A stretch of DNA of 32,000 nucleotides from Opitutia bacterium KCR 482 (GTDB lineage: Bacteria > Verrucomicrobiota > Verrucomicrobiia > Opitutales > Intestinicryptomonadaceae), in contig CP149973.1 in assembly GCA_029269845.2 (NCBI GenBank), positions 330,001-362,000 of the forward strand. Direction: 5' to 3'. Position numbers and translations under genes: made by a program. Numbering within the stretch: position 1 is the first letter of the stretch; each line of letters starts with the position of its first letter. Below the pieces are notes generated by a model. It was not told the DNA's origin and did no database searches. It worked only from the letters and a program-made list of their open reading frames with translations. This document shows, one piece after another, positions 2,855 to 20,146 of this stretch.

Positions 2855-5599
2855 ATGGCTACCAAGAACGCAGAATACAATTTTTCCGAAATAGAAAAAT
2901 ACTGGCAAAAGAAATGGGACGACGAAAAAACATTCCACGCCGAAACCGCGGCCGCCGCTCCCAAATACTACATTTTGGACATGTTCCCCTACCCGTCGGG
3001 CGCGGGTCTGCACATCGGACACCCCGAAGGCTACACGGCGTCGGACATCTTGGCGCGCTATAAATGGGCAAACGGCTTCAACGTCCTGCACCCGATGGGC
3101 TGGGACGCTTTCGGACTTCCCGCCGAACAGTACGCGGTAAAAACGGGCACACACCCATCGATTACGACCGCCGCAAATATCGACAACTTCCGCAAACAGA
3201 TAAAGTCGATAGGCTTCGCAATAGACTGGCAGAGGGAAATAAACACGACAGACCCGTCGTACTTCAAATGGACGCAGTGGATTTTCCTGCAACTCTTCAA
3301 AATGGGGCTTGCGTATGTGGACGAAAAACCCGTGTGGTGGTGTCCGCAACTCGGAACGGTGCTCGCAAACGAGGAAGTCATAGACGGCAAGAGCGAGGTG
3401 GGCAAATTCCCCGTGGAACGCAGAAAGCTCCGCCAGTGGGTGCTGAAAATCACGGCATACGCCGACAAACTCATCAAGGGGCTGGACAAGCTCGACTGGC
3501 CCGACTCTACAAAACGCCTGCAACGCAACTGGATTGGACGCTCGGAAGGCGCGGAAGTCGATTTCGAAATAGCCGACTCCTACGCAAAGGGTCAAAAACT
3601 GCGCGTGTTCACAACCCGCCCCGACACGCTCTACGGCGCAACCTACATGGTCGTAGCCCCCGAACACCCGCTTGTGGATAAACTCGTTTCGCCCGACCAA
3701 AATGCGGCGGTGGAAGCCTACCGCAAGGCGATAGCCTCAAAGAGCGACCTCGACAGAACAGACCTCGCAAAGGAAAAGACGGGCGTGGCGACGGGCGCAC
3801 ACGCAATCAACCCCGTCAACGGAAAACTCATTCCGATTTGGGTTGCCGACTACGTTCTGATGAGCTACGGCACGGGCGCAATCATGGCGGTTCCCGCGCA
3901 CGACGACCGCGACTTCGACTTCGCAAAACAGTTCGACCTGCCCATTATCCGCGTGATTGAAAAGAAGGACGCCGACGGCAACGACGTTCCCCTGCCCTTC
4001 ACCGACGTAGGCAAAATGGTAAATTCGGGCGAATTTACGGGCATGGATTCGGCGGAGGTAAAACGCGCGATTATCGGAATGCTCGAAGAGAAAAAGCTCG
4101 GCAAAAAATCCGTAAACTACAAACTGCGCGACTGGCTGTTCTCGCGCCAACGCTACTGGGGCGAACCCTTCCCGATTCTCTGGGTATCGAAAGACGCCTA
4201 CGACGCCGCGTCGAAAAGCAAAGTCTGGGAGGGCAAACTGCCGCCCGAACCCGTGTCTTTCAAGGACGACTCCGGCGAAACGCGCTACGCGCTTCCGCTT
4301 CCCGAAAACCAGCTGCCGCTCACATTGCCGCAGGTCGAAAACTACAAGCCGTCGGGCACGGGCGAAAGCCCGCTCGCGCACGCGACGGAATGGCTGAACG
4401 TCAAGGTGAACGTCGAAACGGGCGAAGTCAAAAACGCGCCGGAAGCATCGGGCGAAAACTGGTTCGACGCCCGCCGCGAAACAAATACAATGCCCCAGTG
4501 GGCTGGCTCGTGCTGGTACTACCTGCGCTACTGCGACCCCCACAACGACTCCGCCCCGATTGGCGAAGAAGCCGAACGCTACTGGCAGTACCCCGATTTC
4601 TACATCGGCGGCGCGGAACATGCGGTGCTCCACCTGCTCTACGCCCGCTTCTGGCACAAAGTGCTCTTCGACTGCGGCGTGGTCAAGGGCGACGAACCTT
4701 TCAAAAAACTGTTCCACCAAGGGATAATCCTCGGACAGCTCGAATACACAGGCTATAAAAAGGACGGCAAGTGGGTGCCCGCAAGCCAAGCTTCTGAAAA
4801 CGGAGCCGAGGCAGTGAAACTCGCCGAAAGCGACGTCGAAAAAGTCGGCGCGGCGTACGTGCTCAAAGCCGACAAGTCGATTACCGTAGACGCCCGCAGC
4901 TTCAAGATGAGCAAGAGCCGCGGCAATGTCGTCAACCCCGACGACATCATCAAACAGTACGGCGCGGACTCGCTGAGACTCTACGAAATGTTCCTCGGAC
5001 CGCTCGAAGACCAAAAACCGTGGAATACAAACGGAATCGAGGGCGTGTCGCGCTTCCTCAAAAAGATTTGGCGCGAGTTCGTCGGCAAGGACGGCGGCAT
5101 AGCCGAAAAAATCGCCGACGGCGCGCAGGACGACCCCGCCCTGCTGAAATCCCTCAACGAGACAATCAAAAAAGTCTCCGCCGACATCGAAACACTGCGC
5201 TTCAACACGGCGATTTCGCAGATGATGATTTTCCTCTCGACTTTCCAGAAGACCGAAAAAGTCTCGAAGGAAAGCGCGGAAAAATTCGTCAAACTGCTCG
5301 CGCCCTTCGCCCCGCACATCGCGGAGGAACTCTGGGAACGCCTCGGCAATTTTTCGACCGTCGCAAAGGCGGCGTGGCCGAAGCCCGACGAATCGAAAAT
5401 CGGCGGCGACACCGTGAAAATGGGCGTACAGGTCAACGGCAAACTGCGCGGCGAACTCTCGATTGCAAAAACCGCGTCGAAAGACGAAATGCTCGCGGCG
5501 GCGAAAGCCCTGCCCAACGTGCTCGCATTCATCGACGGCAAGACAATCGTCAAGGAAATCTGCGTGCCCGCAAAGATAATCAACATCGTCGTAAAATAA
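2855..5599 (+). CDS. leuS: Leucine--tRNA ligase
   Basis: 914 aa. It carries the class I HIGH motif ([10 protein letters not shown]) and the KMSKS motif (FKMSKSRGN). Length and overall pattern are typical of bacterial LeuRS. Confidence 0.97.
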
Positions 5600-6324
5600 T
5601 GAAACGAACCGGAATCGCGCTTGCGCTGGCGTTTGCGGCGGCGAACCTGCACGCCGCGGGCGGGCTGCTGTATGTCCACACGGCGCGGGGCGCGTCCGAA
5701 ATCGGATTCGGCGGAGCGAAAACGGCGGCGGTTGCGGGAACGTCGGGCGCGGCGAAAGACGCAAAAATTTCGGGCGGCAAAGGCGTGTTCGCCGTGCTCT
5801 CGAACAAAACGGCGTTTTTGCTCGCCGAAGATTCCGAGCTTGAAATCGGAAAATTCGAGCAGGTTGCGCCGTTTAAAGACGACCTCTCCAACGACTCCGA
5901 ATCAACAACGTCGGCATGCGAAATGACGCTAAAAAAAGGCGCGTTGCACGTCCGCGCGCCCCAACTTCGCCCGACAAGCTCGCTGAAAATAAAGACGCCA
6001 GAAGCCGAACTCGAAGCCGAAAGCCGCGGATTTTCGGTATCGACCAACGGCGGAAAAACCGAAGTTCTGCCCGTCGAAGGCGCGCTGGTCGTAAAAACAA
6101 AAAACGGCAAAACCGACATCGTAAAAACGGGGCAACGCGCGGTTGTATGCGGCGGAAAAATAACGATAGACTACGCGCGGGTCTCGGAAGTCGAAGCCGC
6201 AAAAAAGAAAATCGCCCAATGCAAATTCGCCGCAGATACAACGCTGTTTAAGTGCGGCGAAAAAATTTCGGCCGAACGCTCCGTGAAAAAATCGTTCTTC
6301 GGCTACGGTCAAAATTTCGACTAA
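5599..6324 (+). CDS. Secreted protein, FecR-domain-like (tentative)
   Basis: The real start was taken at ATG 5599, overlapping the leuS stop as TAATG. This gives [21 protein letters not shown], a signal peptide. The central region (LKIKTPEAELEAESRGFSVSTNGGKTEVLPVEGALVVKT) resembles the FecR beta-sandwich pattern. The functional call has low certainty. Confidence 0.55.
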   Translation: MKRTGIALALAFAAANLHAAGGLLYVHTARGASEIGFGGAKTAAVAGTSGAAKDAKISGGKGVFAVLSNKTAFLLAEDSELEIGKFEQVAPFKDDLSNDSESTTSACEMTLKKGALHVRAPQLRPTSSLKIKTPEAELEAESRGFSVSTNGGKTEVLPVEGALVVKTKNGKTDIVKTGQRAVVCGGKITIDYARVSEVEAAKKKIAQCKFAADTTLFKCGEKISAERSVKKSFFGYGQNFD

Positions 6325-10286: not shown

Positions 10287-11228
10287 ATGGACGTATCAGT
10301 CGTAATCCCCGTATACAACGAAGAGGGAAACCTCGACCACCTCTTTACCAGACTCTGCAAGGCGATGGACGCGCTCGGCAGGTCGTGGGAAGTAATTTTC
10401 GTAAACGACGGCAGCAAGGACAGGTCGGGCGAAATGCTCAGGGGCTTTTGCATGCAGCGCCCCGAAACCGTCAAACTCATAGACTTTAACGGCAACTACG
10501 GACAGCACACGGCAATCATCGCCGCGTTCGAACGAGCGCAGGGCGACGTTATCGTAACGCTCGACGCCGACCTCCAAAATCCGCCCGAAGAAATCGGCAA
10601 ACTGCTCGCGAAAATCGACGAGGGTTGCGACAGCGTCGGCGGCTACCGCAAACAGCGCGAGGACACCGCCCTGCGCCGCTACTGCTCGAAAATCGTGAAC
10701 TTCGCGCGGGACAAAATGACGAACATCAGAATGAAAGACCAAGGCTGCATGCTCCGCGCGTATAGACGCAACGTGGTCGAGGCGATTCTCAAAACAAACG
10801 AACGCTCGCTGTTCATTCCCGCGCTCGCGTACACGTTCTCTTCGAAGCCCGCGGAAATAGAGGTCGAGCACGCCGCGCGCGAGGCGGGAGAATCAAAATA
10901 CAGCATGTACAAGCTCATCAGGCTGAATTTCGACCTCATCACGGGCTTCACAATCATGCCCCTGCAACTGTTCACGATTTTCGGATTTTTGTCGAGCATA
11001 GGCTCGCTCGGTCTTGTCGTGATTCTCCTCTTCCGCAGAATTTTCCTCTTCTCCGAGGGCGAGGCGGAGGGCGTTTTCACCCTCTTTGCAATCCTCTTCT
11101 TCCTCATCAGCGTGACGATTGTCGGCATCGGGCTTATCGGCGAATACATCGGGCGAATCTACCAGATTGTGCAGTCGCGCCCGAAGTACGTCATCAAGGA
11201 AACAATCGGGTTCGGCGATGGAAAATAA
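10287..11228 (+). CDS. Family 2 glycosyltransferase, polyprenyl-phosphate sugar transferase (ArnC/DPM1-like)
   Basis: 313 aa. The GT2 signature is VVIPVYNEEGNL...FVNDGSKDRS...DADLQNPPEEI. Two C-terminal TM helices match the ArnC-type topology. Confidence 0.8.
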   Translation: MDVSVVIPVYNEEGNLDHLFTRLCKAMDALGRSWEVIFVNDGSKDRSGEMLRGFCMQRPETVKLIDFNGNYGQHTAIIAAFERAQGDVIVTLDADLQNPPEEIGKLLAKIDEGCDSVGGYRKQREDTALRRYCSKIVNFARDKMTNIRMKDQGCMLRAYRRNVVEAILKTNERSLFIPALAYTFSSKPAEIEVEHAAREAGESKYSMYKLIRLNFDLITGFTIMPLQLFTIFGFLSSIGSLGLVVILLFRRIFLFSEGEAEGVFTLFAILFFLISVTIVGIGLIGEYIGRIYQIVQSRPKYVIKETIGFGDGK

Positions 11229-12087
11229 GGACAAGAAAATCCTGTTTTTCGGGTTCAGCGACGTCGGCTACCGCTGCCTGAAATACATGCTCGACGAGGG
11301 CTACAACGTAATCGGCGTCTTCACCCACGACACCGACCCGCACGAAGCGCACTGGTTCAAAACGCCGGAATCGCTCGCAAAGGAAAACTTTATCCCCGTC
11401 TTCAAGCCCGAAACGCTCAAAACGGAAAAGTGGTACCGCAAAGTCAAATACATGCAGCCCGATTTGATTTTGTCGCTCTACTACCGCAATATTATCCCCG
11501 AAGAAATTTTCTCGCAGGCAAAGCTTGGCGCGTACAACATGCACGGCTCCTACCTGCCCGCCTACCGCGGCCGCGCCCCGCTTAACTGGGCGATTATAAA
11601 CGGCGAATCCTACGGCGGCGTCTCCCTCCACGTGCTCGAAAAAAAGTTCGACACGGGCGCAGTCGTGGACCAAGAAAAAGTCGATTTCGGCGAAAACGAA
11701 TATGTCGGCGACATTCAGCCGCGCATTTCCGACGCCGCCCTACGCGTCTTCACCCGCTCGCTCGAATCGCTACTCGACGGCAACCCGAAAACCGTCCCGC
11801 AAGACTTGTCGAAAGCCTCGTATTTCGGCAAACGCACCCCCGAAGACGGACGCATCGACTTCTCGAAAACCGCCCGCGAAGTCTTCAACCTAATCCGCGG
11901 CGTGAGCAAGCCTTTCCCCGGGGCATTCACCGAAATCGACGGACAGAAGACCGTCATTTGGCGAGCGAAAATCGGCGAACCTGCAAACGGAATCCCTGCG
12001 GGAACTGTCGCCTCGCGCAATCCACTTAAAATCGCCTGCGCCGACAATTTCATCGAGGCGGAGGAAACGGAGTTCGCGAAAAGCTAG
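11218..12087 (+). CDS. Formyltransferase (Fmt / ArnA N-terminal domain-like)
   Basis: The start was taken at ATG 11218 (MENKDKKILFFGFSDVGY...), in frame within track ORF 11119..12087. It overlaps the GT2 gene by 11 nt. The catalytic motif is NMHGSYLPAYRGRAPLNWAIING. Confidence 0.8.
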   Translation: MENKDKKILFFGFSDVGYRCLKYMLDEGYNVIGVFTHDTDPHEAHWFKTPESLAKENFIPVFKPETLKTEKWYRKVKYMQPDLILSLYYRNIIPEEIFSQAKLGAYNMHGSYLPAYRGRAPLNWAIINGESYGGVSLHVLEKKFDTGAVVDQEKVDFGENEYVGDIQPRISDAALRVFTRSLESLLDGNPKTVPQDLSKASYFGKRTPEDGRIDFSKTAREVFNLIRGVSKPFPGAFTEIDGQKTVIWRAKIGEPANGIPAGTVASRNPLKIACADNFIEAEETEFAKS

Positions 12088-12107
12088 AAAAAACATACAA
12101 TTAAGTG

Positions 12108-13265
12108 GTTTTGACTTTACAGCAAAGTGTTCTTTCTTAGATTTAATGTCGCCCGTTGGGTGTTATCTGTCGGGTTTTGACTTTACAGCAAAGTGTTCTT
12201 TCTTAGATTTCGCGGTCGTCTATCTGATAGCGCGGAGGCGTTTTGACTTTACAGCAAAGTGTTCTTTCTTAGATTATTTTCGCCACAGACACCAAAGGCG
12301 CGTTGGTTTTGACTTTACAGCAAAGTGTTCTTTCTTAGATTCCGCCGTCTGCTACATCGTAAAACGCTACGGTTTTGACTTTACAGCAAAGTGTTCTTTC
12401 TTAGATTGAAGTTCGCCGAATACGTCGTAAACGGCGCGTTTTGACTTTACAGCAAAGTGTTCTTTCTTAGATTAAAATATGAAATTATCAAAAAATGCGC
12501 TTGGTTTTGACTTTACAGCAAAGTGTTCTTTTTTAGATTAATCTGCATAACGAGGGTACGTTCAAACTTGTTTTGACTTTACAGCAAAGTGTTCTTTCTT
12601 AGATTGCATATTCAACAGAGCTTGCCCGAAGACTTGTTTTGACTTTACTGCAAAGTGTTCTTTCTTAGATTTTTTTCTAAAATGGGCTGTAAGCCGTCTC
12701 TGTTTTGACTTTACAGCAAAGTGTTCTTTCTTAGATTATGTCTATTCGACGTCCTCGTTTGGTATAAGTTTTGACTTTACAGCAAAGTGTTCTTTCTTAG
12801 ATTAGGACTGAAATGAAAATAAAGAGCACAAACGTTTTGACTTTACAGCAAAGTGTTCTTTCTTAGATTTGGATTGAGCGGGAAGCCAAGAAACTCGGTG
12901 TTTTGACTTTACAGCAAAGTGTTCTTTCTTAGATTTTGCGAATATGCAAGGGCTTTAATCGTTGAGTTTTGACTTTACAGCAAAGTGTTCTTTCTTAGAT
13001 TCATTGAAGCATATGTGCGATTGCTTGTCAAGTTTTGACTTTACAGCAAAGTGTTCTTTCTTAGATTCACGGTAGAAGTAAGCTATACCGCAGGATTGTT
13101 TTGACTTTACAGCAAAGTGTTCTTTCTTAGATTAACCTCGACGCAAAACTTCGGGTGAAAGCAGTTTTGACTTTACAGCAAAGTGTTCTTTCTTAGATTA
13201 TTATTGGCGACGTATTGTCCGTTCTCGAAGTTTTGACTTTACAGCAAAGTGTTCTTTCTTAGATT
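12108..13265 (+). CRISPR. CRISPR array with 18 repeats of 36 nt and 17 spacers of exactly 30 nt
   Basis: The repeat is GTTTTGACTTTACAGCAAAGTGTTCTTTCTTAGATT. I checked every unit by hand and found an exact 66-nt period from 12108 to 13230. There are two single-base repeat variants: repeat 7 (12504) has C29T at 12532, and repeat 9 (12636) has A14T at 12649. Both terminal repeats are perfect. Plus orientation is assigned from the GTTTT start typical of type II repeats and from the plus-strand anti-repeat. Confidence 0.97.
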
Positions 13266-13269
13266 ATAC

Positions 13270-13298
13270 TTGACATAATTTATGGCGTGCCAAATAAT
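13270..13298 (+). promoter_or_regulatory. Candidate sigma70-like promoter for the tracrRNA
   Basis: TTGACA (13270-13275), then a 17-nt spacer, then AATAAT (13293-13298). This predicts a start near 13305, just upstream of the anti-repeat. The call rests on the hexamer match only. Confidence 0.4.
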
Positions 13299-13304
13299 TA
13301 GTCC

Positions 13305-13382
13305 ATAATTTTGCTATAAAGTCTTAACTGATTATGCCGAATTTTAAGCTCTACATAGTACCTTAAAATTCGGCATTTTTTT
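13305..13382 (+). ncRNA. tracrRNA: Predicted tracrRNA (~78 nt)
   Basis: The anti-repeat at 13308-13328 (AATTTTGCTATAAAGTCTTAAC) pairs with repeat positions 1-21. That gives 17 Watson-Crick pairs and 1 G-U pair, with a 2-nt U.U internal loop at repeat positions 4-5 and a C.A mismatch at position 13. A perfect 15-bp hairpin follows: ATGCCGAATTTTAAG (13334-13348) / CTTAAAATTCGGCAT (13362-13376). The hairpin's final T (13376) begins a T7 tract that ends at 13382. The 5' end is inferred from the promoter guess. Confidence 0.7.
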
Positions 13383-13390
13383 ATTCACAC

Positions 13391-13813
13391 CTAAAACAGC
13401 AGAAAATTATTATCCGTCTTGTCCAATTCGTACTGTGGCGACGGTTTTGCGAAAAACTCTTCCGCCCCCTCCGAAAAAAATTCAATCTGCTCGGGGACTT
13501 TTTCAAGTCGCTTCGGTCGACGGCAAACCAGTTTGCTCGTCGCCCACTGCTTATCCGTAAAAAACAAAAGCCTTATGTCTCCCGTCGTAGGAGCGTAGGA
13601 TTTAACACGTTCATAATATTTTTTCATGCGCTCCATTGATACGCACGGACGCGAATACACGGAGTATTGAATCATGATAAATCCGTCGTCGAGCAAAGCG
13701 TTTCGGAATCGGGTCGCCTCTTTGCGCTCTTCGTCGAGCAACACGGGCAAGTCGAACATCGCCATCAGCCACCCCATTCTATACGGACTCCTTTTTTCGA
13801 TTTTGCATGCCAT
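13391..13813 (-). CDS. cas2: CRISPR-associated endoribonuclease Cas2
   Basis: 140 aa with the core WLMAMFDLPV...RKEATRFRNALLDDGFIMIQYSVYSRPC, as in type II Cas2. It starts 6 nt after the cas1 stop. An alternative start at ATG 13777 (MGWLMAMFDLP) is preceded by AAGGAG. Confidence 0.9.
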   Translation of the reverse strand: MACKIEKRSPYRMGWLMAMFDLPVLLDEERKEATRFRNALLDDGFIMIQYSVYSRPCVSMERMKKYYERVKSYAPTTGDIRLLFFTDKQWATSKLVCRRPKRLEKVPEQIEFFSEGAEEFFAKPSPQYELDKTDNNFLLF

Positions 13814-13819
13814 TGAAAT

Positions 13820-14710
13820 TTATAATTTCGGCGTCCACAATTCACCAGAATCTTTGCGCCGATATGCGTTTGCAAGTGTTTCGCAAAGATAGTCGGCGGC
13901 GTCGCACAATTTCATCGAAACCGAAGCTTTTTTTACGCGCCTGTCGCGCAAAAACTTGCCGAAATACACCGACCAAGCCGCAATCGAAGCCCCGCTTTCG
14001 GCAACGAGAAATTGGTAGAGCGCAAAATCCACAAACGCCCTAAACGGTTCAATCACGTCGTGGACAAGCGGCGTATTTTTGTAATACGTTTTGTGGTTTA
14101 CTCCGAGCAGAAAATTCAAGCCCGCTACGATAACCGCGCGGTGGATTATCGCCGACATAATTCCGTATCCGTAGTTTAGCAGAACGTTTATTTTAGAGTC
14201 GCCGTTTTTCGGATCGCGCCCTACTCCGTACTCTCCAAGTTGCGGAAAATAATGTTTCCAATATTCCCGCGCGCAAAGCGATTCGTTCAACAATGCGTTT
14301 TGCGATTGCGCCATTGAAAACAGCCGGCATTTTTTGATTCCGATTTGCCTGAGGCACTCGGCGTTGTTGCGGATTTTTGCGGCAAGCAGGCGACGCCAGA
14401 TTGCTCCGTTCAGATTCTTGTTTCCGGCGGACTGGTTTAAAACCACTTTTGCGTCGTATGTGCGGTTGTTCGGAACGGTGATGCCGACGGGCTTAAAATC
14501 CCTGCAATGAACTATCACGGCGTCGAATTCCGACAGCGCGGCAATGACGTCTCCGCTAATCGAAACCGCGCCGTTGAGAAGAATCACCGCGCGCAAATCC
14601 TCCAATGCTATTTTGCCCAATATTTTGCCGTCTTTTTTGCATACCAGCAGACCGCGCTCGCGCACGAGCCTGCACCCGTAATCCATGACGTGCAAAATAT
14701 GATAGCTCAT
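13820..14710 (-). CDS. cas1: CRISPR-associated integrase Cas1 (type II)
   Basis: 296 aa. It has the N-terminal beta-domain, then the Cas1 acidic/His residues in context (NESLCAREYW; GVNHKTYYKNTPLVHDVIEPFR). Its start ATG overlaps the cas9 stop as TAATG. Confidence 0.95.
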   Translation of the reverse strand: MSYHILHVMDYGCRLVRERGLLVCKKDGKILGKIALEDLRAVILLNGAVSISGDVIAALSEFDAVIVHCRDFKPVGITVPNNRTYDAKVVLNQSAGNKNLNGAIWRRLLAAKIRNNAECLRQIGIKKCRLFSMAQSQNALLNESLCAREYWKHYFPQLGEYGVGRDPKNGDSKINVLLNYGYGIMSAIIHRAVIVAGLNFLLGVNHKTYYKNTPLVHDVIEPFRAFVDFALYQFLVAESGASIAAWSVYFGKFLRDRRVKKASVSMKLCDAADYLCETLANAYRRKDSGELWTPKL

Positions 14711-17700
14711 TATATTATATCCAATTTTATGCGTTTCATTCCCGCGGGCATTAGGTACTGAATGGAAATGGGCTTAGACGAAATTCCGTCCGAATTTTCC
14801 AAATACCCATACCCATCCGCCCGAATCGAATTAGACTTGTAAATACCCGACTTTAAGAGCATTTTTCCCGATTTATCGACGACATCGTTCGGAATTTCGA
14901 CAAGGCAGTTCTGTCTAAAAAATCCGCAAACTTCGGCGCAATCGGGATTGTTTTTCAATGAGGCTAAAACTTTCGCCTTCGAGGCGTGCGCATAAACGGG
15001 CGCAACCATATACTTACCCTTTTGAGTTTTCCAGATGAACTGCCCTTTGTGTGAATCACCCTTGCGGTACGCGCCGCAGCCGTCCTTCGACAAATCCTTG
15101 TATTCTTCGGGACTGCCGACTTCGCACAGCACCCGCAGCAACTTTGTTGGCGCACCGTTTTTGGAGGGAATTGCTGCTTCATATTTGCACCAATCCTCCC
15201 ATTCGGATTCTTTTAAATCGGGATTAGACAATACAAAATCGGAAATTATGCGTTTTGAAACATCTCCAACGATACTTTCTATGCGTTTAACCAATTTCGT
15301 ATAATTGTATTTGGGATTTATTCCTTCGTATGCCAAATCGCGGACATTGCACTTTTTCACAATGCGTCCCTTGCGCAAAGAGTAAATCGTCTGTTCAAGT
15401 TTTGACTTTTCCACCGCAACCTTATTCGGAATTACTGTTGCCAGATACCTGCCGAAAAACTTGCGGGCTTCGTCGCTTTCAGGGTTGCGCGTGATTTCTT
15501 CGGGAAGAATATTTTTGTAGGCGGAGGCTTTCTTTGCGTTCGAAGTCGGCGCAAAGCAAAGACACATGGCGTCGAGCGCGTGGTGCTTTTTGTTTTTGCG
15601 GTTCTTTTCCTCGAATTTCTTTTCCATGCAAATTCGGTCGAACAAAGACAAATCCTCCGCAGACTCTTCGTCGTGGAGAAGCCTGTTCAAGCCGTAGCGC
15701 CCGCGAATCATGGCGGTGGTATTGCCCGAAACCGTCCAAACCTTTTTTGCGCCCGCAAGTCCGCCGAATTGGAAACCGAAATGCAGGCAGCAAATCCGCT
15801 GCGCAAGCTTTGAAATCCATGCGGTTTCGGCAAGAGCCGTGTATTTTTCCACAAGCTCCGCCGCGTTCGGTGAAAGCAAAAGTTTGCAACGTTTTGCGCC
15901 GAGTTCTTTTGTCAACTTGCGGACGCGCTCGCAATAGCTCTCCCACTCCGCACCCATTGTCGAACGCCATTCGAAGGGCGTTCGGTCGCCCTTCTCCTTG
16001 TTCGTTTTCTCGTCGGTCAATACGTAATTGTACATCGCGTCTGGGCCGCCGCGGCTGCGCGGAACAATGTGCTCAATCTCCAAACTTTCAAGCTCCGAAA
16101 GCGGCAGCGCATTTCCCGTGTAAACGCATTCTCCGCCCTGTTTTTTGTACAATTCGAATTTTAACAGCATTTTTTTCGAGGCGTATTTGAAACCGAACTC
16201 CTCCCGCTTTGAATCAAGATCTTCGGCAAGCTTTTTCTTCTCATCGAAGCGCGTTTTGATTGCCTTGTTCAGATCGCTTTTTGCCTTTTTGCCGAGAAAA
16301 TCGTCGCGCACAAATTCGAGCACGATTTTATCGGGAACGCCGAACTTTGCTTCGAGCGATTTTATGCGCTCGTAAAAGAACGAAAGCCTGTGGCGCACAA
16401 TGGGGTCGTTTTGGCTTCCGATAAGCTTGTTGATTTGCGCCTCGCGGGCGGCTGCGGAAGCATCGGCAAAGTCGGACAAACCGACATCCGGAATGAAAAT
16501 TCCGCTCCACGGCGCGTCCCCCATGAGTTTCAGAAAGTCCAAATCCCCAGCGACAAGCCCCTTGTTCTTGTCAGTGTTTGCAATATTTTCGATTGCCGTC
16601 GCGTAAAATTCCGCGGGCGACTTGCCCGAAAAAATCAGGTCGCGCAATATCCGCATTGCGGGGCGTGAAAACGCCGCCCTGCCTCCGTTCCTCGGCTGTT
16701 CGATTTCCGACTGGCTCTCGTCCATCACCTCCGCGCCGATTGTTTTGAAAAACTTTTTCAAAGCCGCCTTGCCCAATTTGAATTTCGAGTTTTTGGCAAG
16801 TTCGAAAGCCCGTAAAAATTCGTCGAACGAAAGAGAATCCACACCCGCGCCACGGAAAAAACGCAGATTTAACAATTTTAACGACAATGTAATTGTGTAT
16901 GACAGAAAGTCGTCGTCGGTTTTGCATTCGTCAAGCGGCTTGATTTTGCAAACGTTTAGCCGCGGAATCAGTTTGCATTTGTCGATTACGCGGTTGTCGA
17001 AGCGCGGCGTTTTCTGCCCCAGCGCGGTCCAGTCGGTCGCCGCGCCGCGTTTAAGCCCGAACCGCTTGCGAAGCTCTGGATTGTACGAAGCGTACGGCTC
17101 ACAAGCCCTGCCGAACATGATGAAATCCGCCTTGCCTTTCAGATTCGGATACTGCAACGCGGCGGCGTTTACGAGCGCGCGGAATTCGCGGACAACCGCC
17201 TCTCGCGGCACGACATATCCTTTTGCCTTTTCGGCGGTATTGTCGATTCTGACGCCGACAAAATCGGGATTTTCGGGCGACCACAAGCCCATTTTCGCCG
17301 CTTTGAAAAAGCACGGAAATTCGTATTTTTCGCGATTGTCAAGCTCCGCGAGAATACCGTCAAATTCGCGCTCATAGTGAGCAAGCTTTTCGGCATAAGA
17401 CTCGCCGTCTCCGCTTGCGTCGGAATCGGAAGATTTCCGCGAGATGCCGTCTCCGCCGTCCGCCGCGTCTTCGTCCCCCCACGGAATGTTTGCGTCATAG
17501 CCGCGGTTTTGAATCGCCGAATTCAGAGCTTTGAAGACCTGCCAACTTTCGAGTTTTTCGCCGAGCAGTAATTTACAGCGCAAAGCGATTGAATTATAAC
17601 AGAGATCTTCGCCCGCAGGCGGAAATTCGCGCTCCAAACGCACATCGCCTTTCGAGACAAGCTTCCACGCACCGTCAACAACGCCGACCTTTCTCCGCAA

Positions 17701-17931
17701 AAGAACCTCAATTCCCGCTTCGGAAAGACATTTTTCAAGCCACAATTCGCGCGCCTTATGGGCTTCGCGCGTGCGCCACGCGCGGCGGGCGGCTGCGGTG
17801 GTTTTTGTTTCGGCAAAGTCGGGCGCAATTTCGAGCGACTGCACATGTTTAAATTCGTTCCCCACTCTTACAGCCTCGCCAAGAGAACCCTTGCCAATAT
17901 CAAAACCCCAAATAATTTCTTTCGTGTACAT
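14710..17931 (-). CDS. cas9: Cas9 (type II-C-like, 1073 aa)
   Basis: RuvC-I is WGFDIGKGSLGEAV (Asp11). The Arg-rich bridge helix is AAARRAWRTREAHKAR. RuvC-II is KIVLEFVRD (Glu539). The HNH region is ECVYTG...LEIEHIVPRSRGG...NYVLTDEKTNKEKGDRTP (His621, Asn644). RuvC-III is KKHHALDAM (His784, Asp787). I checked the codons for Asp11, Glu539, His621, His783/784 and Asp787 directly in the nucleotide sequence. cas1 and cas2 follow it, with no csn2 or cas4. Confidence 0.95.
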   Translation of the reverse strand: MYTKEIIWGFDIGKGSLGEAVRVGNEFKHVQSLEIAPDFAETKTTAAARRAWRTREAHKARELWLEKCLSEAGIEVLLRRKVGVVDGAWKLVSKGDVRLEREFPPAGEDLCYNSIALRCKLLLGEKLESWQVFKALNSAIQNRGYDANIPWGDEDAADGGDGISRKSSDSDASGDGESYAEKLAHYEREFDGILAELDNREKYEFPCFFKAAKMGLWSPENPDFVGVRIDNTAEKAKGYVVPREAVVREFRALVNAAALQYPNLKGKADFIMFGRACEPYASYNPELRKRFGLKRGAATDWTALGQKTPRFDNRVIDKCKLIPRLNVCKIKPLDECKTDDDFLSYTITLSLKLLNLRFFRGAGVDSLSFDEFLRAFELAKNSKFKLGKAALKKFFKTIGAEVMDESQSEIEQPRNGGRAAFSRPAMRILRDLIFSGKSPAEFYATAIENIANTDKNKGLVAGDLDFLKLMGDAPWSGIFIPDVGLSDFADASAAAREAQINKLIGSQNDPIVRHRLSFFYERIKSLEAKFGVPDKIVLEFVRDDFLGKKAKSDLNKAIKTRFDEKKKLAEDLDSKREEFGFKYASKKMLLKFELYKKQGGECVYTGNALPLSELESLEIEHIVPRSRGGPDAMYNYVLTDEKTNKEKGDRTPFEWRSTMGAEWESYCERVRKLTKELGAKRCKLLLSPNAAELVEKYTALAETAWISKLAQRICCLHFGFQFGGLAGAKKVWTVSGNTTAMIRGRYGLNRLLHDEESAEDLSLFDRICMEKKFEEKNRKNKKHHALDAMCLCFAPTSNAKKASAYKNILPEEITRNPESDEARKFFGRYLATVIPNKVAVEKSKLEQTIYSLRKGRIVKKCNVRDLAYEGINPKYNYTKLVKRIESIVGDVSKRIISDFVLSNPDLKESEWEDWCKYEAAIPSKNGAPTKLLRVLCEVGSPEEYKDLSKDGCGAYRKGDSHKGQFIWKTQKGKYMVAPVYAHASKAKVLASLKNNPDCAEVCGFFRQNCLVEIPNDVVDKSGKMLLKSGIYKSNSIRADGYGYLENSDGISSKPISIQYLMPAGMKRIKLDII

Positions 17932-17961
17932 ATTAAATAAAAAACATGTTTATCAGTTAAA

Positions 17962-17997
17962 ACAAAATTATATTATTAGTATAAATACAACAATCAA
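17962..17997 (-). promoter_or_regulatory. Candidate promoter region of the cas9-cas1-cas2 operon
   Basis: The stretch just upstream of the cas9 ATG is very AT-rich. On the minus strand, TTGATT (17997-17992) is followed after 16 nt by TAATAT (17975-17970), or after 19 nt by TATAAT (17972-17967). The call rests on the hexamer match only. Confidence 0.3.
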
Positions 17998-18584
17998 GCT
18001 TTTTTAACGCAAATAAAATCCGCGCGGCACCTCAGAAACCCGCAAAAAGCGAAAATTCCGGCGCGAATTTTACCCTATTCCTGCAGCGAAGCCTGCGCAT
18101 AATACATTGAAAAATACGATAGCCCCAGCAACAGACGGCCGGGATAAAAAGGAACGCAAAATATTAAGCGCATAATCATGCAACGGAAAAAAGACGATAT
18201 GAGCTCCGTCGTCTTTGCCCGCTCTTTCGAGTCGTTTTCGTTTGCGCTCGATTGATATTCAATCCTACGGAAGGATAATAATCAGCAAAATGACTATGAT
18301 TGCGCCGATGATTGTCAAGGCGTCATCGCAGCACTTCATGTCGGTATAGTCGTCTATGCCGATTTTTCCGTCATCAAAGTCGTCGTTTAGCTTGTTTTTG
18401 CGTTTCATTGTCTTGCGGGATTGCCCAGCAACCAAAGCCCTAAAAAACGCTTCGGCCGCGGAATGTGTGGCATTGTTTGGAAGGCGGCATTATCCGTTTT
18501 CTCGCGCAATAGTACAGATTTGACGGGGAAACGCAAGATTTTTCGATTTGGCGGGCGGTTTTAAGTGAGAAAAAGAGAAATGAC

Positions 18585-18615
18585 AAAAAAACCCGCAAGG
18601 GTGAAAATTTGCGGG
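18585..18615 (-). terminator. Rho-independent terminator downstream of tRNA-Gly
   Basis: 7-bp stem CCCGCAA (18592-18598) / TTGCGGG (18609-18615). On the minus strand it is followed by a T7 tract (complement of 18585-18591). Confidence 0.55.
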
Positions 18616-18626
18616 CTTTTTAAAAC

Positions 18627-18699
18627 AGCGGGCGGTGGGGGTCGAACCCATAACCTCAAGCTTGGGAAGCTCGCGCTCTGCCAATTGAGCTACGCCCGC
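18627..18699 (-). tRNA. tRNA-Gly (anticodon CCC)
   Basis: The minus strand reads GCGGGCG-TA-GCTC-AATTGGCA-GAGC-G-CGAGC-TTCCCAA-GCTTG-AGGTT-ATGGG-TTCGACC-CCCAC-CGCCCGC plus a discriminator T. This folds by hand into a 72-nt cloverleaf with a 7-bp acceptor stem and a TTCGA T-loop. There is one A.C mismatch at the top of the T stem. CCA is not encoded. Confidence 0.9.
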
Positions 18700-18892
18700 G
18701 ATTGTTTTTTAGCAAACACCTTTTACTGCCGTTTGTAAAGTTTTTTATCCGAATTTTTATTGTCGGTGTTTTTGGAGTTGAGCTGCTCTTATTGTTATAT
18801 TCCGACATGCTCTTTCGATGTTTGGCTTGTTCGTTTGCGCCATGTTCGCAGCGCTGATTGTTTTGCGTCCGCCCTGTTTCAGCACGGTTGGG

Positions 18893-20146
18893 CTACAATT
18901 TCATTTGCATTTGCACGCGGATTGACGAAGAGTCTGCGAAGCCGCCGCCCGAATATTGCAAATAATCGTAGCCGAGTTGGAATTTCAAATTATCGCCGCG
19001 CAGATACCAATTAAGTCCGACGTAGAATTCCTGCACGCTATTATACAGTTTGCCTATGTTTTTCGACTGCCGCTGTGCGTCGACTATCCGCAAGCCCCTG
19101 CCGTCGGTATTGCCCCACGAGTATCTGAATGTCGGCGCGATTTCCCCGAATTCGCCCGTGGCGAAGCGGTATTCGACCGAAAAGTTCAGTCCGTACGGAT
19201 TTGCCTGAGTATAGTTGCCGCCGACTTTTTTGCCGTCGGCTACCCCCGATGCAAGGAAGTCGCCCCACAGCCGCAATCCGCCGCACTCTGCGACGAAGTA
19301 CGGGTTGAGCGAGAGAATCGATGCAGAGCCTGTCGCGCCCATGTTGTAATTTGCGTCGCTCGAATAAGCGGTGTAAACGCCCGTTTTGAAGCTCCAATCG
19401 TCGCCCGAAGTCTTATAATGGACGCTTGCCCAATATGCGAAGTGGTTGTCGGTATACTGGTATGAAAGTTCGTCGAGTTCGGTCGGCGAGAGCTGGTAGG
19501 CGTTGGTGATTGCGAGCATATACGAGAGTCCGCCGCCGATGTCGCCGTTCCAGCGCACGCCCATGTAGCGGTTGCCGACGCCGAGCCTGCGGTTGTTCGC
19601 AGCTCCCGTCCAGTACATTGTTGCCGCGGAGCGTTCGATTGCGTTCAGCCCGAACGACGAAAACATGTCCTCGACCGAAAACCCCGGTTTCATGTAGCCG
19701 AGGAAAATGCGGCCGTCGAGCGCGTCGATTTTTTTCGAAACGTATGTGTCGGTCAGAATGCTGTTCATGCGCGAGCGCGCCATATCGACGGAAACGCGGG
19801 CGTCCCAGCCTCCGCCGAGGTCGGCGTCCGCCTGAATGAAGAACCTGCGCACGATGAAGCCCTGCGAGCATGCGTAGTCGCGGAATGGATTGTACGATTC
19901 GGCGTCAATCCACTCGTATTGAAGCTGGAAGCGCGCGCTCAATTTCAGCGATTTTGTCGATTCAACGGAGCGGACGACTTCCGCCGATTCCTTTGCAAGC
20001 ACGGACGCCTCCTGCGGCGTCAAAAGCCCTTTTGCGACGAACGCGTCGAGCATTGCCTTGTCGGAGGCATGCGAGACTGAGATGGAAAATGCGGCAAGAA
20101 GCGCGCATGCTGCGCATTTTACGAATCTGTGCGGTGCGGAAATCAT
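18893..20146 (-). CDS. Putative outer-membrane beta-barrel porin
   Basis: 417 aa with a signal peptide (CAACALLAAFSISVSHA). Alternating aromatic/Gly-rich beta-strand patterns run throughout (YEWIDAESYNP, GWDARVSVDM, LGVGNRYMGVRWNG, YVGLNWYLRGDNLKFQLGYDY). It resembles porin O/P-type proteins. The family assignment is tentative. Confidence 0.6.
   Translation of the reverse strand: MISAPHRFVKCAACALLAAFSISVSHASDKAMLDAFVAKGLLTPQEASVLAKESAEVVRSVESTKSLKLSARFQLQYEWIDAESYNPFRDYACSQGFIVRRFFIQADADLGGGWDARVSVDMARSRMNSILTDTYVSKKIDALDGRIFLGYMKPGFSVEDMFSSFGLNAIERSAATMYWTGAANNRRLGVGNRYMGVRWNGDIGGGLSYMLAITNAYQLSPTELDELSYQYTDNHFAYWASVHYKTSGDDWSFKTGVYTAYSSDANYNMGATGSASILSLNPYFVAECGGLRLWGDFLASGVADGKKVGGNYTQANPYGLNFSVEYRFATGEFGEIAPTFRYSWGNTDGRGLRIVDAQRQSKNIGKLYNSVQEFYVGLNWYLRGDNLKFQLGYDYLQYSGGGFADSSSIRVQMQMKL

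Follow-up and report, generated by a model that had tools for sequence, protein, structure and literature searches.

The window analysed here, the whole of a 32 kb stretch of DNA, contains a compact type II locus in which cas9, cas1 and cas2 lie on the minus strand and are separated from a CRISPR array by a gap of 124 nt, with a porin-family gene and a formyltransferase gene flanking the locus (Table 1). The adaptation genes there are cas1 and cas2 only, neither csn2 nor cas4 having been found at the locus, and the 124-nt gap between cas2 and the array holds the predicted tracrRNA gene with which we are concerned. We infer that the plus strand is the crRNA sense and that the array is read towards cas2, since the anti-repeat, the terminator and the strand of the promoter point this way, as does the repeat 5' end (GTTTTGAC), which is conserved in relatives. 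Protospacers that would allow the strand and the PAM to be checked were sought with the whole array among INPHARED phages and with the 3' 22 nt of spacers 15–17 in IMG/VR, and neither search returned a match.

Table 1. Features of the CRISPR locus and of the predicted tracrRNA gene, with positions in the window
Feature	Position	Strand	Remarks
CRISPR array	12108–13265	+	18 repeats of 36 nt (GTTTTGACTTTACAGCAAAGTGTTCTTTCTTAGATT on the plus strand), 17 spacers of 30 nt
Promoter-like site in repeat 1, TTTACA-N16-TAGATT	12116–12143	+	Repeat positions 9–36; recurs in every repeat except repeat 9
Last repeat	13230–13265	+	Ends at 13265; carries internal promoter-like site
tracrRNA promoter-like site	13270–13298	+	−35 TTGACA 13270–13275, N17, −10 AATAAT 13293–13298
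Predicted tracrRNA, ~78 nt	13305–13382	+	5' end inferred from −10 box, 3' end from U-tract
Anti-repeat, ATTTTGCTATAAAGTCTTAAC	13308–13328	+	Pairs with repeat positions 1–21
Linker UGAUU (DNA TGATT)	13329–13333	+	U13329 and A13331 invariant in 52 sequences
Composite hairpin	13334–13376	+	Perfect 15-bp lower stem, 13334–13348/13362–13376
Hairpin internal loop	CUC 13349–13351 opposite C 13361	+	3×1
Hairpin apical stem UAC/GUA, loop AUA	13352–13354/13358–13360	+	3 bp, RNAfold
Terminator U-tract	13377–13382	+	8 nt short of the cas2 stop codon of the other strand
cas2, 140 aa	13391–13813	−	Convergent with predicted tracrRNA gene
cas1, 296 aa	13820–14710	−	Type II (NMENI) family; TIGR03639, 122.6 bits
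cas9, 1073 aa	14710–17931	−	Divergent Verrucomicrobiota clade

The anti-repeat reported in a preliminary description of this DNA is present exactly as stated there: it pairs without gaps with the first 21 nt of the repeat through 17 Watson–Crick pairs and one G–U pair (position 20), leaving a U.U/U.U 2×2 internal loop opposite repeat positions 4–5 and a C.A mismatch opposite position 13. The accompanying statement that the locus has no other anti-repeat also held, and for the entire window, in searches for inverted copies, for mismatched copies and with the covariance model R1 described below: the reverse complement of repeat positions 1–19, with up to three mismatches allowed, occurs in the window only at the 18 repeats and at 13310–13328 on the plus strand (0.00 in shuffles), and a repeat search of 12000–18600 showed no other inverted copies of the repeat. 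The repeat:anti-repeat duplex is A/U-rich and weak (−19.8 kcal/mol), and when duplex energy was scanned across the whole window in both repeat orientations with the array masked, G/C-rich chance sites inside genes ranked top and the anti-repeat was absent from the top ten. Energy alone is a poor anti-repeat detector here; it is contiguity, position and conservation that mark out the site.

Beyond the anti-repeat, the 5-nt linker and the perfect 15-bp hairpin that follows it were confirmed, and RNAfold assigns the hairpin a minimum free energy of −20.4 kcal/mol (z = −4.56), a stability reached in none of 200 shuffles. Two details of the earlier account have been revised. The tract of seven T said to follow the hairpin exists (13376–13382), but its first T closes the stem and so six T follow; and the 13 nt described as a loop do span the distance between the stem arms but are structured, forming a 3×1 internal loop and an apical stem of 3 bp with a covarying middle pair. 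The minus-strand reading has no U-tract after the hairpin, where AAUCAGUUAAG stands instead. The proposed TTGACA-N17-AATAAT element is also present, and is the best promoter-like site in 12000–13900, agreeing with 11 of the 12 consensus positions (a consensus match only). When the predicted RNA was cofolded with the repeat, a check suggested in the preliminary description, it adopted the designed architecture.

Relatives of the Cas9 are many and come nearly all from Verrucomicrobiota; at least 187 stretches encoding them were confirmed among species-representative genomes, and one near-identical Cas9 fragment (99%) belongs to an Opitutia MAG. We retrieved 79 related Verrucomicrobiota cas9 loci from the species-representative genomes, with Cas9 identities of 32–76%. 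Where these loci have an array, it lies ~1.4 kb beyond the end of cas9, and the repeats, read on the strand opposite to cas9, all start GTTTTGAC/GTTTTGCC. The stretch between array and cas2 follows one plan in the relatives: the last repeat, a TTGACA-like box, a −10-like box ~17 nt further on (NANNNT), an anti-repeat ending in ...GTCTTAAC, a linker TGA(T/A)(T/A) and one long hairpin, which in most of them is followed by a T-rich tail abutting or overlapping the cas2 stop codon; some G+C-rich relatives have a short or an interrupted T-tract. A second sample (L080), whose Cas9 is 97% identical, has an identical RNA gene, the C.A mismatch included.

An alignment of 52 distinct sequences (A2) served as the basis for pair counts and for R1. 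With the proposed structure, 88.9% of cells in this alignment are paired, against 32–39% when the 3' partners are slid by 1–3 columns; all 15 pairs of the lower stem have changed on both sides, and the covariation score of 0.744 (0.225 in shuffles) was reached by none of 500 shuffles. The covarying middle pair of the apical stem is G–C in 43 sequences and A–U in eight. Cells with G–U or U–G outnumber those with A–C or C–A by 49 to 12 on the plus-strand reading, and the transcribed strand is therefore fixed. While the stem sequence drifts, the junction AACUNA is invariant (alignment columns A8, A9, C10, T11 and A13), as are the apical bases C31, C33, U34, A42 and C43 of the alignment, and the conserved apical motif reads C-N-C/U-G-C; such an invariant junction and apical motif beside a drifting stem would be unexpected in a plain terminator. 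R1 matches the window once, at 13319–13381 (80.4 bits, E = 3e-13; next best 9.9 bits), and it matches 65 of the 79 related loci, at the junction of cas2 and array and on the strand opposite to cas9. Apart from an extra copy in one locus (L013), these matches sit ~55–75 nt from the array and adjoin the cas2 stop codon. Among the 14 loci that gave no match, 12 end less than 1.1 kb past cas9, short of the expected site.

Repeat and anti-repeat also change together from locus to locus. The repeats of the loci compared range from A/T-rich (ACAACAAA...) to G/C-rich (CACCCCCCGGAGAAG...), and each of the other 38 loci compared has an anti-repeat that fits its own repeat, though the repeat middles are unrelated between clades. 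The 2×2 internal loop at repeat positions 4–5 is kept in 39 of 39 loci (the window included), even where the bases differ, and these mismatched positions correspond to the ‘bulge’ module in other guides. Private to the lineage of the window, in contrast, is the C.A mismatch at position 13, where the relatives have G. Duplexes are 24–32 bp long in the G/C-rich clades and 19–21 bp in the gut Opitutales subclade to which the window belongs, and in this subclade the −10 box now occupies the former distal half of the anti-repeat. We therefore regard the short imperfect anti-repeat, rightly so called in the preliminary description, as a derived state.

Considering the conservation of the element, its covariation and the locus-by-locus co-variation of repeat and anti-repeat in about 65 related loci, we consider it very likely, with a probability of roughly 85%, that 13305–13382 on the plus strand encodes the tracrRNA of this cas9–cas1–cas2 system; the gene had been placed there at the outset, immediately behind the last repeat and on the strand of the array. 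A sigma-70-type promoter of its own, situated immediately past the last repeat, would drive the RNA, which would start near 13305, ~7 nt past the −10 box, and end in the U-tract, where an intrinsic terminator adjoining the cas2 stop codon would halt transcription. Within its first ~24 nt lies the 21-nt anti-repeat, which would pair with nt 1–21 of each repeat in the crRNAs; these would come from the same strand and probably from repeat-internal promoters. Cas9 would then read three features, namely the duplex with its 2×2 loop, the invariant AACUNA junction and the one long hairpin, the top of which is formed by the conserved 3×1 internal loop, where C-N-C faces a single base, and a stem reading U-G/A-C : G-C/U-A. 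The hairpin may thus be both the Cas9-binding scaffold and the stem of the terminator: it would suffice to do the job performed in other tracrRNAs by a nexus together with terminal hairpins, and it would terminate the tracrRNA as well as read-through from the array before this runs antisense into cas2.

The 3' scaffold had been described as consisting entirely of one long hairpin, and a single unbranched hairpin is indeed conserved in the 52 aligned relatives, with no nexus stem–loop plus further hairpin in them or in the window. A further expectation, that the guide might be unusually short, is not borne out, since the predicted tracrRNA has 78 nt and its 3' scaffold 54 nt, against 47 nt for Sau, 49 nt for Cje, 53 nt for Spy, 60 nt for St1 and 69 nt for Nme in published sequences (PMC8038530). 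The window scaffold is minimal in hairpin number and lies within the published range in length, and the single-hairpin tracrRNA is a structural variant that is simpler than the textbook versions, not shorter. The suggested sgRNA scaffold has 96 nt and folds as designed.

With respect to topology, the reference tracrRNAs fold with at least two hairpins after the duplex, and among the biochemically characterised Cas9 guides that we found described none has fewer than two. The shortest catalogued sgRNA class has two hairpins (PMC7606464), and a recent II-C study gives the duplex plus two stem–loops as the canonical II-C architecture; non-canonical tracrRNA folds have been reported in bulk for metagenomic Cas9 proteins (PMC10278012). 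We found no description of a single-hairpin scaffold in Rfam or in searchable papers, nor, in a literature search, a described guide of a Verrucomicrobial Cas9; Akkermansia muciniphila is listed among the loci with weak anti-repeats only (Chylinski 2013). A covariance search of 11000–19500 against Rfam gave no match even at E ≤ 10, and at the gathering score the whole window yielded tRNA only; the Rfam tracrRNA family represents the same functional class as the window RNA, but its covariance model does not match.

The system of Neisseria meningitidis (Nme, II-C) resembles the window in its cas9–cas1–cas2 gene set, in an array that runs opposite to the cas operon and in repeats that each end in a −10-like box (here a consensus match only). 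In RNAfold predictions, the base of Nme stem–loop 2 shows the same 5' CUC bulge, the same U-G-C : G-C-A pairs and the same 1-nt 3' bulge as the window hairpin, which may be the counterpart of this stem–loop (SL2) in a scaffold from which SL1 is missing. The two differ in that Nme has two stem–loops after the duplex (a nexus-type SL1 and SL2) in a 3' scaffold of 69 nt, whereas the window has one hairpin in 54 nt, and in that the window hairpin combines a long lower stem (15 bp) with a short upper stem (3 bp), Nme SL2 being the reverse. The tracrRNA of Campylobacter jejuni (Cje) is of similar size (74 nt against 78 nt), and its array likewise runs opposite to the cas genes; it contains CUCUGC, but in another predicted pairing context than that of the window hairpin, and has two hairpin elements after the duplex against the one found here. 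These two elements reportedly form a triple helix in the crystal structure. Compactness of the guide is shared with the Sau-like ‘clade V’ sgRNAs, which the catalogue of Gasiunas 2020 gives as its shortest class, and the Sau 3' scaffold (47 nt) is shorter than that of the window (54 nt).

The occurrence of two or more hairpins in characterised guides speaks for the first alternative, namely that the RNA is a genuine tracrRNA with an incomplete scaffold, and that Cas9 depends on something further: another RNA, an extended tracrRNA whose start lies in the last repeat, or tertiary contacts made with the 3' half of the repeat, which is left unpaired. The internal promoter of the last repeat could give a form of ~110 nt, and repeat positions 22–36 are conserved yet unpaired in the subclade of the window. 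Their conservation is, however, accounted for by the embedded promoter, and the cas2 stop codon follows directly after the hairpin. Nor is there another conserved element at the locus: R1 shows no second copy in the window, neither an anti-repeat nor an R1 match lies upstream of cas9, and homology to relatives at 76% identity stops there ~75 nt before the start codon. We consider an incomplete scaffold improbable, if the most serious of the alternatives.

Less probable still is that the hairpin is a mere terminator between the convergent array and cas2, and the inverted partial repeat a decaying by-product of rearrangement. A hairpin with a U-tract is the textbook form of an intrinsic terminator, and this one is placed exactly where array transcripts must end before cas2. 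A decaying by-product would hardly co-vary with the repeat in dozens of loci while keeping positions 4–5 mismatched, however, and both the loop-proximal motif and the AACUNA junction are invariant down to 34% Cas9 identity. The dedicated promoter is conserved as well, and a type II system needs a tracrRNA, for which the window offers no other candidate. That array and cas operon are instead transcribed together on the minus strand, with the element acting there or the true tracrRNA lying outside a window that spans only 32 kb, is very unlikely: CRISPR tools usually assume a common direction for array and cas genes, but opposite directions are documented in N. meningitidis, C. jejuni and F. novicida (Chylinski 2013), and the minus-strand reading has AAUCAGUUAAG in place of a U-tract, runs against the G–U excess and the strand of the promoter, and leaves aside that the conserved repeat end GTTTTGAC is the pairing end and that −10-like repeat 3' ends occur on the plus strand only.

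The Cas9 itself is divergent. Its matches to solved structures by sequence are confined to RuvC-III/HNH, with Nme1Cas9 first, and the N-terminal 506 aa gave no match in a sequence search against the PDB. By fold, an AlphaFold model (pLDDT 76.5) is matched best by SaCas9, with Nme1Cas9, ThermoCas9, St1Cas9, HpaCas9, AceCas9 and GeoCas9 also among its best matches, and the sole compact Cas9 in the list of fold matches (733 residues) stands at rank 34. The assignment to II-C in the preliminary description agrees with the gene content and with these fold neighbours; against it stands the NCBIfam name, as NF049971 (‘Cas9d’) matches the protein with 1171 bits (cut-off 375) over profile positions 2–985 of 986. 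Cas9d is marked by a REC domain of less than 300 aa, zinc ribbons and an RRXRR domain, and its tracrRNA scaffold is larger; the II-D adaptation module includes cas4 (PMC12669027), and the Cas9d scaffold measures 135 nt and comprises a nexus stem, a central stem of 17 bp, a second stem–loop and a pseudoknot (PMC11903963). Here the region between bridge helix and RuvC-II measures ~430 aa, RRXRR (PF14239) gave no match in the protein, and the 54-nt 3' scaffold with its one hairpin contrasts with the 135-nt pseudoknotted scaffold of Cas9d guides (MG34-1, MG102-like). Type II-D was considered in earnest because of the NCBIfam name but not adopted, in view of the absence of cas4 and RRXRR, a REC region of ~430 aa, the small scaffold and fold neighbours that are not Cas9d; the locus resembles II-C in gene content and in the fold neighbours of its Cas9.

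Judged from the aligned relatives, the single-hairpin scaffold is real and conserved across the whole Cas9 clade. Far more tentatively, and with doubt outweighing confidence, we suggest that this Verrucomicrobiota clade, whose REC lobe is unlike that of any solved Cas9 by sequence, might work with a tracrRNA of two modules, an anti-repeat and a hairpin that would be nexus, Cas9 handle and terminator in one. If this is true, not every Cas9 would require a separate nexus, and trimming of the 15-bp lower stem and of the duplex could bring an sgRNA scaffold well below 60 nt; by itself, the window guide is no shorter than guides already in use. If one hairpin suffices, the scaffold would have the simplest topology that we found described for a Cas9, and it would put the need for a nexus-plus-hairpin architecture to the test. 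Since tracrRNAs are often hard to find and structurally diverse, a guide model supported by covariation is also of use for an uncharacterised Cas9 clade that includes gut Opitutales: it supplies the strand, the predicted ends and a design for an sgRNA, and it points to the 2×2 loop, the apical C-N-C/UGC motif and the AACUNA junction as the places that the protein is likely to read.

Finally, the repeats themselves carry sites that resemble promoters. A scan found 25 promoter-like sites, where 3.3 were expected, with one per repeat and none at repeat 9; the 3' ends of the repeats resemble −10 boxes on the plus strand only, and in G+C-rich relatives they read TATAAT, TACAAT or TAGAAT. These sites are putative crRNA promoters, and since the repeats carry them, as those of N. 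meningitidis reportedly do, crRNAs would be expected to start inside each spacer. The internal promoter of the last repeat could yield a longer form of the tracrRNA or a transcript carrying crRNA and tracrRNA in cis, and a cis fold of such a transcript retains the repeat:anti-repeat pairing. Because the array runs into the tracrRNA gene with no terminator between them, we speculate that transcripts from the last repeats could fold in cis as a natural single guide, and, if the two-module reading is true, the last spacer may be expressed as such a single-guide RNA.

Repeat 9 departs from the other repeats by A14T at 12649, a change noted in the preliminary description, in which weaker pairing of the crRNA for spacer 8 was anticipated. 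The variant is present, but in the duplex A14U costs only ~1.1 kcal/mol; overlooked at that stage was that the same change turns TTTACA into TTTACT and thereby destroys the promoter-like site, so that repeat 9 is lost from the promoter scan. If the variant matters at all, it may affect the crRNA of the following spacer more than that of spacer 8.

By sequence comparison, the CRISPR-cas system of the window behaves as a self-contained cassette close to a tRNA gene, since homology with the corresponding loci in more distant relatives extends only to about 18006 on one side and to the array end on the other. The short ORF upstream of cas9 is present as a gene call in two other assemblies (L080 and L082); its DNA shows no conservation in relatives at 76% identity.

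Features of the CRISPR-cas region (window coordinates)
Feature	Position	Strand	Remarks
CRISPR-cas cassette	12088-18006		Flanked by a formyltransferase gene (end at 12087) and, on the other side, by tRNA-Gly(CCC), 18627-18699 (-)
Sigma-70-like promoter match, TTTACA-N16-TAGATT	12116-13265		Promoter scan; one per repeat (repeat positions 9-36)
Repeat 7 variant, C29T	12504-12539		Second repeat variant; in promoter spacer
47-aa ORF	18265-18408	-	334 nt upstream of cas9; hydrophobic C-terminal tail

The Cas9 encoded within this cassette (14710-17931, minus strand) is named 'Cas9d' by NCBIfam, with a score of 1171 bits, and this label conflicts with the remaining evidence: the locus lacks cas4, the protein has neither an RRXRR domain nor a small REC, and the neighbours of its predicted fold are II-C and small II-A Cas9s.

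Within the array region the promoter scan returned 25 promoter-like sites, against 3.3 expected, and the only repeat without a match is repeat 9, which carries A14T. The substitution in repeat 7, which falls in the 3' half, where the repeat is unpaired, still leaves the promoter-like match in place.

In the related locus L024 (76–78% DNA identity) about 1.8 kb, corresponding to window 16376 to 14583, is missing at about 1392-1396. It looks like a decayed locus, to judge from its sequence, because this segment, which takes in the 3' half of cas9 together with the beginning of cas1, is absent while cas2, the tracrRNA and one repeat are retained.

Additional tracrRNA-like copies were seen in two relatives. 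L050, a single lake MAG doubtfully labelled Akkermansia muciniphila, carries two tracrRNA copies between cas2 and the array (4756-4819 and 5045-5108, minus strand), about 290 nt apart. In L013 the canonical copy (10512-10573, minus strand) is accompanied by a second tracrRNA-like gene (5828-5889, plus strand; 61.6 bits with the covariance model), which lies about 110 nt upstream of cas9 and on the same strand, and has its own TTGACA-N17-TATAAT and its own anti-repeat. The two L013 copies differ in stem sequence and are identical in the apical motif.
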